In this document: positions 1 through 334 of the stretch, piece by piece | Numbering within the stretch: the first letter of the stretch is position 1 | Layout of the letters: the number at the start of each line of letters is the position of its first letter | Source of the DNA: Escherichia coli | Lineage (GTDB): Bacteria > Pseudomonadota > Gammaproteobacteria > Enterobacterales > Enterobacteriaceae | Length of the DNA stretch: 334 nucleotides | Assembly (NCBI RefSeq): GCF_003334335.1 | Contig: NZ_QOWQ01000217.1 | Direction: 5' to 3' (one strand) | Notes under the pieces: generated by a model | Database searches by the model: none | Told to the model about the DNA's origin: nothing | What the model saw: only the letters and a program-made list of their open reading frames with translations | Made by a program: the position numbers and the translations under genes

Positions 1-334
1 GTCCGGTGGCCATCACGCCCTATACCCTGATGCAGGCCATTGCGGCGGAAGGTGATGTCACCACACCGGTGGTGGTGAAGCCGTCGGATGGAGAAGGCAC
101 AGTTATCAGCACCACCAGCGAACCGGAGTATTACTTTGTTGTTGTTCTGGCGGGGCAGTCAAACTCAATGTCTTTTGGTGAAGGGCTGCCGCTGCCGGAT
201 ACATATGACCGTCCGGACCCGCGTATTAAACAGCTGGCGCGTCGCAGTACGGTGACGCCGGGTGGTGTCGCCTGTAAATATAACGACATCATTCCGGCGG
301 ACCATTGTCTGCATGATGTACAGGACATGAGCCG
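1..334 (+). CDS. nanS: Internal fragment (5' and 3' ends outside the window) of an SGNH-hydrolase / sialate O-acetylesterase (SASA)-family protein, most likely a NanS-like 9-O-acetyl-N-acetylneuraminate esterase, possibly the prophage-type (NanS-p) form with an N-terminal extension
   Basis: Seen in sequence: the frame starting at nt 3 is open to nt 334 with no stop codon (first full codon 3-5, last full codon 330-332). Translation: PVAITPYTLMQAIAAEGDVTTPVVVKPSDGEGTVISTTSEPEYYFVVVLAGQSNSMSFGEGLPLPDTYDRPDPRIKQLARRSTVTPGGVACKYNDIIPADHCLHDVQDMS. Both other + frames hit stops within the first ~55 nt (tga at 28-30 in frame 1; tga at 53-55 in frame 2). Established knowledge: hydrophobic beta-strand followed by GQSN(A/S)M is the block-I nucleophile motif of SASA/SGNH esterases. 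The GEGLPLPD...DPRIKQLARRSTVTPGG...C.YNDIIPADHCLHDVQDMS stretch matches my recollection of E. coli NanS/YjhS-family proteins; this is recalled, not searched. Codon usage (ctg, ccg, gcg, cgt, ggt favoured) looks enterobacterial. The strand and frame are well supported; the specific NanS assignment is less certain. Confidence 0.8.
51..128 (+). other. Low-complexity Thr/Val/Pro/Ser-rich segment (GDVTTPVVVKPSDGEGTVISTTSEPE), putative interdomain linker upstream of the esterase core
   Basis: Seen in sequence: codons 17-42 of the open frame are dominated by T, V, P, S, G, E and D with no long hydrophobic run, directly preceding the first beta-strand of the esterase domain. Inference: this composition is typical of flexible linkers between domains and suggests another domain is encoded upstream of the window. 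Confidence 0.4.
153..164 (+). other. GQSN active-site motif (SGNH block I); putative catalytic nucleophile Ser encoded by tca at 159-161
   Basis: Seen in sequence: ggg cag tca aac at 153-164 encodes G-Q-S-N, immediately after the hydrophobic run YYFVVVLA (codons at 129-152). Established knowledge: in SASA/SGNH esterases the Ser of this motif is the nucleophile. The downstream catalytic Asp/His block lies beyond the window and cannot be confirmed. Confidence 0.7.

Follow-up and report, generated by a model that had tools for sequence, protein, structure and literature searches.

The gene nanS-p lets enterohaemorrhagic and Shiga toxin-producing Escherichia coli (EHEC and STEC) use the O-acetylated sialic acids of mucin. 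The three-domain architecture of its product and the location of these sialate O-acetylesterase genes in the late region of the phage genome have been described (PMC10462455). More recently, the product has been reported to decorate the phage capsid (bioRxiv 10.64898/2026.04.10.717836, a 2026 preprint). The described NanS-p proteins of EHEC and STEC, among them L0105 of phage 933W and gp84 of phage phi24B (vb_24B_21), consist of DUF1737, an esterase domain of the SASA family and a C-terminal lectin-like domain. Their genes lie between the antiterminator gene Q (or stx) and the holin gene S, and their sequences carry the GQSN, QGE and His blocks. All of these features are shared by the gene to which the DNA analyzed here belongs.

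The window, by which we mean the whole stretch of 334 nt that was analyzed, is 100% identical to positions 18946-19279 of Escherichia phage PhiR5_1 (PV340545.1). In the extracted PhiR5_1 locus (L001) it occupies positions 6001-6334 and falls inside an annotated plus-strand CDS of 662 codons (L001 5901-7889). The order of genes in this locus is Q (4524-4904), nanS-p (5901-7889) and holin S (8615-8830), with lysozyme R and Rz downstream. Stx phages carry the homologous gene directly downstream of stxAB, gene L0105 of 933W being an example; PhiR5_1 differs from them in that it lacks stx and has Q followed by small ORFs and then nanS-p. The window is thus, almost certainly, an interior section of nanS-p, a known prophage gene, read on the plus strand. 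In the explanation that we propose, this is the nanS-p of the late region of lambdoid and Stx-type E. coli prophages, whose product is a three-domain sialate 9-O-acetylesterase. The features of the window are as follows.

3..332, plus strand: coding sequence from within nanS-p, codons 35-144 of 662; neither end of the gene lies inside.
3..50, plus strand: C-terminal third of DUF1737 (residues 35-50); the Pfam domain covers residues 3-50 of the full protein.
51..119, plus strand: variable interdomain linker (residues 51-73), marked by indels and by the peak of pN/pS along the gene.
120..332, plus strand: first part of the catalytic esterase domain, SASA (SGNH-type), residues 74-144; the alignment with 3pt5 begins at residue 74.
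153..164, plus strand: Block I, G85-Q86-S87-N88, with the predicted nucleophile Ser87 at bases 159-161.
131..328, minus strand: antisense shadow ORF of 65 codons, judged non-coding; unconserved, of a length in the chance range, and without a Pfam or NCBIfam match.

The plus-strand frame that begins at base 3 runs through 110 codons with 0 stops (translation PVAITPYTLMQAIAAEGDVTTPVVVKPSDGEGTVISTTSEPEYYFVVVLAGQSNSMSFGEGLPLPDTYDRPDPRIKQLARRSTVTPGGVACKYNDIIPADHCLHDVQDMS) and carries the motif AGQSN, and the remaining two plus-strand frames of the window are full of stops. The segment of the catalytic domain seen in the window comprises the first 71 residues of that domain, counted from residue 74, where the alignment with 3pt5 (NanS) starts; according to Pfam, SASA starts at residue 81. 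The divergence of the linker is evident both in its pN/pS, which reaches 0.66 over residues 51-77 and is the maximum of the gene, and in the many alleles whose DNA aligns with the window only from about base 116-123 onward. Linker residues 51-73, also in the other phage loci that were compared (L002-L016), form the most variable part of the gene and contain indels. In gp84 of phi24B, DUF1737 is the capsid-binding part of the protein (bioRxiv 10.64898/2026.04.10.717836, 2026 preprint), and a cleavage has been proposed just after it, at about residues 54-57 and beside the sequence SISSP, such that only the N-terminal domain stays on the capsid (bioRxiv 10.64898/2026.04.10.717836). The linker of the present allele contains the sequence VISTTSEP, which may be set beside the SISSP that adjoins the proposed site in gp84.

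Assignment of the plus-strand gene to a family rests on full-length Pfam, PDB and PHROG matches. Pfam places DUF1737 at residues 3-50, SASA at 81-276 and DUF6645 at 511-619 of the 662-aa protein. Among PDB entries, 3pt5 (NanS, or YjhS, of E. coli O157:H7) matches residues 74-394 with about 62% identity (E 1.6e-114), and 6yp6, the C-terminal lectin-like domain of NanS-p, matches residues 448-656 (E 3.8e-48). The plus frame of the window matches PHROG family phrog_143 (E 6e-63). The order DUF1737, SASA esterase and C-terminal lectin-like domain is therefore the three-domain architecture of NanS-p. Taken by itself, the 110-aa fragment of the window gave no Pfam match even at E 10, because it comprises no more than the end of DUF1737 and the beginning of SASA. 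No NCBIfam model scored above its cut-off with the full protein, LysJ appearing as noise with 14 bits where 700 are required.

Block I is invariant. The sequence (A)GQSN was found in 18 of 18 homologues, the chromosomal nanS of K-12 included, and GQSN aligns with 17-GQSNA-21 of 3PT5. Positions of the catalytic blocks were taken from PMC10792757, which tabulates those of 3PT5, and from PMC9487903. The latter identifies the Gln that precedes the nucleophilic Ser as an oxyanion-hole residue of the SASA type (PMC9487903), which corresponds to Gln86 in the present protein, and names the (H)QGE motif Block III (PMC9487903). Downstream of the window, WMQGEKD aligns with WMQGEFD of 3pt5, and KTHFSS, the His block, aligns with SSHFSS. 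The identity of the gene, its domain architecture and the conservation of its motifs are established by these matches. As the predicted nucleophile, Ser87 of Block I would take the 9-O-acetyl group off Neu5,9Ac2. From the approximately 62% identity to the characterized NanS catalytic domain, and from what is known of the family, we infer that the protein hydrolyses this group.

Matches to the window at 80-99% identity occur in 1020 of 5426 complete E. coli genomes, at a median of 3 places per matching genome and at up to 7, with roughly 2600 nanS-p copies overall, and they are annotated as SASA family carbohydrate esterase or as DUF6645 domain-containing protein. Two draft E. coli contigs (L019 and L020) end inside nanS-p, an observation that fits assembly breaks at a prophage gene present in many copies, and many database entries for the plus-strand protein are labelled "partial". 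In three phages the gene is interrupted, the first stop falling after residue 73 in PhiR5_2 (L002), 280 in phage 2851 (L005) and 269 in Stx1_2409 (L013). The first two are annotated as two CDSs, and the corresponding stretch of the third carries no annotation. These interrupted copies could be pseudogenes or sequencing errors. Immediately upstream of nanS-p in PhiR5_1, between the small ORF that follows Q and nanS-p itself, 580 bp (L001 5318-5900) are without an annotated gene. This stretch holds a minus-strand ORF of 107 aa (L001 5579-5902) whose start overlaps the ATG of nanS-p. That it might be the IraM-like gene that Stx phages have at this position was considered and rejected, as no similarity was seen; its single match was a partial one, to phrog_31368, a family of 40 residues whose function is unknown.

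The list of ORFs that accompanied the window presents a different picture. Six ORFs of at least 20 aa occur in the window, and a single one of at least 60 aa, a minus-strand ORF of 65 aa at 131..328 with an ATG start. The lister applied a default cut-off of 60 aa and left out ORFs running off either end. The preliminary description had called this minus-strand ORF the only one listed, and we recovered it with identical coordinates and an identical peptide. It had also claimed that the ORF fully overlaps a plus-strand frame with the conserved motif, which is the case, as that frame is open and contains AGQSN. Its explanation of why the plus-strand gene is missing, namely that neither end lies in the window, agrees with the listing rule: the gene is absent from the track because ORFs running off either end are unlisted, and the minus-strand ORF 131..328 is left as the "only ORF" because a stop-to-stop lister cannot report a gene with both ends outside the 334 bases. 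A search of both window strands against Rfam gave no match and no sign of a structured RNA.

The geometry of the two frames determines which tests are informative. The codons of the minus-strand ORF are the triplets 131-133, 134-136 and so on, and their third positions fall on the same bases as those of nanS-p codons. Only sense-strand junctions of the form NNY-TAY or NNT-CAN can consequently give rise to a minus-frame stop. We propose that the minus frame stays open here since the local sense codons happen to form no such junctions. In the PhiR5_1 genome it remains open for 143 codons; its first start, a TTG, gives 91 aa, and the ATG at base 328 is internal to that longer reading. The length of 65 aa is thus partly set by the edge of the window.

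Is such a length unusual? When the protein segment of the window was resampled with synonymous codons, 16% of the resamplings (0.159) carried a minus-strand ORF of at least 65 aa under the definition used by the ORF lister; the fraction becomes 0.05 when an upstream stop inside the window is required, a value that is not comparable with the output of the lister. In the real nanS-p gene, 35% of 334-nt windows contain a minus-strand ORF of this size or larger. Resampled whole genes had a mean of 3.8 antisense ORFs of at least 65 aa, the longest having a median length of 129 aa, and the antisense ORFs of the real gene measure 92, 91, 88, 88, 83 and 68 aa. An antisense ORF of 65 aa is within chance expectation.

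The composition of the minus-strand ORF was evaluated as well. Codon usage, scored as log-odds against the other annotated genes of PhiR5_1, gave +14.7 bits for the nanS-p frame, the only positive frame, and -22.8 bits for the frame of the 65-aa ORF. The peptide had been described as low-complexity, which holds in a mild form: 11 of its 65 residues are Ser and SGSGSPSP occurs as a run, yet the entropy amounts to 3.87 bits per residue vs 4.07 for the plus-strand peptide. Consensus scans, which are weak evidence either way, found no clear AGGAG-like Shine-Dalgarno sequence 5-10 nt before the minus-strand ATG and no minus-strand promoter-like site upstream of the ORF.

To compare the conservation of the two frames, 18 homologues were aligned without gaps. 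The plus frame is open in all 18, at 60-100% identity, and in 10 of the 18 the minus-strand ORF has lost its ATG or gained internal stops. The ATG is lost in L002, L007, L010/11, L016 and K-12 nanS, and internal stops appear in L010/11, L012-L015, L016 and K-12 nanS. The length of the minus-strand ORF is accordingly 17, 29, 52, 53, 91, 132 or 140 aa depending on the allele, with five alleles having only 17-53 aa. One large group of Stx-phage alleles has no minus-frame stop over 172-180 codons, which gives ORFs of 132-140 aa. Silent changes in nanS-p at bases 155, 173, 203, 215 and 320 each make a minus-strand stop in some allele, and another at base 326 destroys the minus-strand ATG. The change at base 155 is from GGG to GGT, and that at base 173 from GCx to GCT.

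Tests of selection used a small sample, 15 distinct sequences, without phylogenetic correction. The pN/pS of the minus frame was 0.286 and that of the plus frame 0.165, a minus-frame value below 1 being expected because the third codon positions of that frame coincide with those of nanS-p. For the same reason, codon-position periodicity cannot separate the frames. Since neither periodicity nor pN/pS discriminates between them, we counted substitutions that are silent in one frame only, restricting the count to single-site differences in an otherwise identical codon context. Changes that are silent in the plus frame and non-silent in the minus frame numbered 24 (16 amino-acid changes and 8 stops), and those of the reverse kind numbered 5, the opportunities for the two classes being equal (33 vs 33). 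Changes that create minus-strand stops made up 8 of 95 observed silent changes vs 6 of 145 possible ones, and are thus not depleted. The preliminary description had proposed a comparison of synonymous sites as a check, and its outcome favors the plus strand: beneath the minus-strand ORF the silent divergence of nanS-p is not lowered, the pooled pS of the plus frame being 0.426 there vs 0.33-0.39 elsewhere in the gene outside the linker, and the discriminating changes stand at 24 vs 5. In the segment under the minus-strand ORF, the pN/pS of the plus frame is 0.117, the minimum of the gene. The antisense frame shows neither conservation nor selection in these comparisons.

Comparison of homology hits for both translations, another check proposed at the outset, was equally one-sided. 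The plus-strand translation found 168 protein clusters, named DUF1737 domain-containing protein, sialate O-acetylesterase or SASA family esterase; the size of many of them ranges from hundreds of members to more than 1500. The full-length plus-strand protein matches NanS at the E value given above. The minus-strand peptide found one cluster with one member among 5.8 billion. This single relative is a 66-aa "hypothetical protein, partial" encoded by bases 1-201 of draft contigs whose end cuts nanS-p. On these contigs the true nanS-p fragment is called on the opposite strand, so that the situation is the same as in the 334-base window.

The peptide had further been said to have no recognizable motif. 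This is correct for Pfam and NCBIfam, neither of which gave a match, but not for PHROG, where it matches family phrog_25016 (E 1.2e-31). The antisense ORFs of 132-140 aa in the Stx-phage alleles span the profile of this family end to end. In addition, the record of the Stx1 converting phage NC_004913.3 has an annotated ORF spanning the site of the minus-strand ORF, namely ORF b71 (NP_859225.1; 122 aa as deposited). That record lists 201 features in 60 kb, and in the extracted locus (L021, 105-2051) it places 4 ORFs inside nanS-p, B76 and B77 on the same strand and b72 and b71 antisense. None of the other 17 phage and genome loci that were fetched has a minus-strand annotation at this position. 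ORF b71 is probably over-annotated and was probably carried into the family database, where it is the likely source of phrog_25016. Conserved homologues of its own had been named as the finding that would turn the case in favor of the minus-strand product. The family phrog_25016 and the protein NP_859225.1 formally touch this point, but both represent this shadow ORF as it occurs in other nanS-p alleles, that is, in other alleles of the same DNA, and are therefore not independent homologues.

These data bear on several alternatives. The minus-strand ORF could be a real antisense overlapping gene within nanS-p, equivalent to ORF b71, that encodes a small Ser/Cys-rich protein; we regard this as very improbable. 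The reading draws on the considerable length over which the minus frame stays open, 143 codons here and 172-180 in many Stx-phage alleles. However, the length of the ORF is expected by chance, its start and stop are unconserved, with 17-53 aa left in five alleles, and silent changes of nanS-p freely make minus-strand stops and remove the ATG. It could likewise appeal to the pN/pS of 0.286, yet beneath the ORF the silent sites of nanS-p show no drop in divergence, and the codon usage of the ORF resembles that of non-coding sequence. That an antisense frame has been deposited as a protein (NP_859225.1, ORF b71) and forms phrog_25016 loses its weight once it is considered that the annotation stems from a record listing every ORF, and that the minus-strand peptide is without homologues outside the nanS-p locus. 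Precedents do exist, since translated antisense ORFs have been reported for other genes of EHEC (E. coli O157:H7) and in K-12 the small protein YthB is annotated on the strand opposite the 3' end of chromosomal nanS; but in a limited check of the EHEC overlapping-gene literature we found no mention of nanS, and consensus scans of the minus-strand ORF found no Shine-Dalgarno or promoter-like site. A narrower version, in which the antisense frame is translated at prophage induction as a young and lineage-restricted overlapping gene within nanS-p, is slightly less probable still.

Just as improbable as this narrower version is the idea that neither strand encodes a working protein, the plus frame of PhiR5_1 being a decayed or non-functional copy of nanS-p. 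Disrupted alleles do exist, with stops after residues 73, 280 and 269 (L002, L005 and L013). The copy in PhiR5_1, however, is intact over 662 codons and has the three domains and all catalytic blocks; an intact copy 99.5% identical to it is present in E. coli NCTC9112, and purifying selection on the plus frame is strongest in the catalytic-domain segment of the window. The explanation that we prefer is that the minus-strand ORF is a shadow ORF of nanS-p, neither conserved nor selected. From knowledge of the family, we also infer that antisense expression is absent.

The earlier reading, a real gene on the plus strand and a spurious ORF on the minus strand, is supported. Its warning that an annotation based on the track alone would pick the wrong strand describes what can be seen in public data, in the 66-aa call at a contig end and in ORF b71. 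The significance of the finding is mainly one of quality control: ORF lists made from short windows or contig ends miss genes whose ends lie outside, and may offer an antisense shadow ORF instead. The gene nanS-p is already described, and the antisense ORF is an ordinary by-product of chance.

The present allele can be placed relative to described ones at the level of both protein and DNA. It encodes 662 aa vs about 645 aa in the Stx-phage alleles, and it has its own linker and its own C-terminal variant. Compared with it, the Stx-phage alleles show 81-92% DNA identity over the esterase core; for the initial 1000-1200 nt of the gene the figure is about 70-78%, and in the part coding for the C terminus the alignment is limited to 173 nt, at about 71%. 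Chromosomal NanS (YjhS, 3PT5) has the same SASA/SGNH domain, with the GQSN nucleophile at Ser19 there and at Ser87 here. Unlike the prophage protein, it is a single-domain protein of 326 aa without DUF1737 or the lectin-like domain, and its gene belongs to the nanCMS operon and not to a prophage. The antisense frame that corresponds to the minus-strand ORF is full of stops in chromosomal nanS. In K-12 MG1655 (L018), YthB (b4802; 32 aa; 6598-6696, plus strand) overlaps nanS (6615-7595, minus strand); it lies over a different part of the gene than the window ORF and is unrelated to it.

The minus-strand ORF itself is comparable to known shadow ORFs and to the disputed antisense overlapping genes of EHEC, which are also long ORFs embedded antisense in a conserved gene. 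Published candidates for overlapping genes are backed by ribosome-profiling or phenotype data; the present ORF differs from them and fails the tests of conservation and selection. Such embedded ORFs are sometimes taken up by permissive annotation, as happened with ORF b71.
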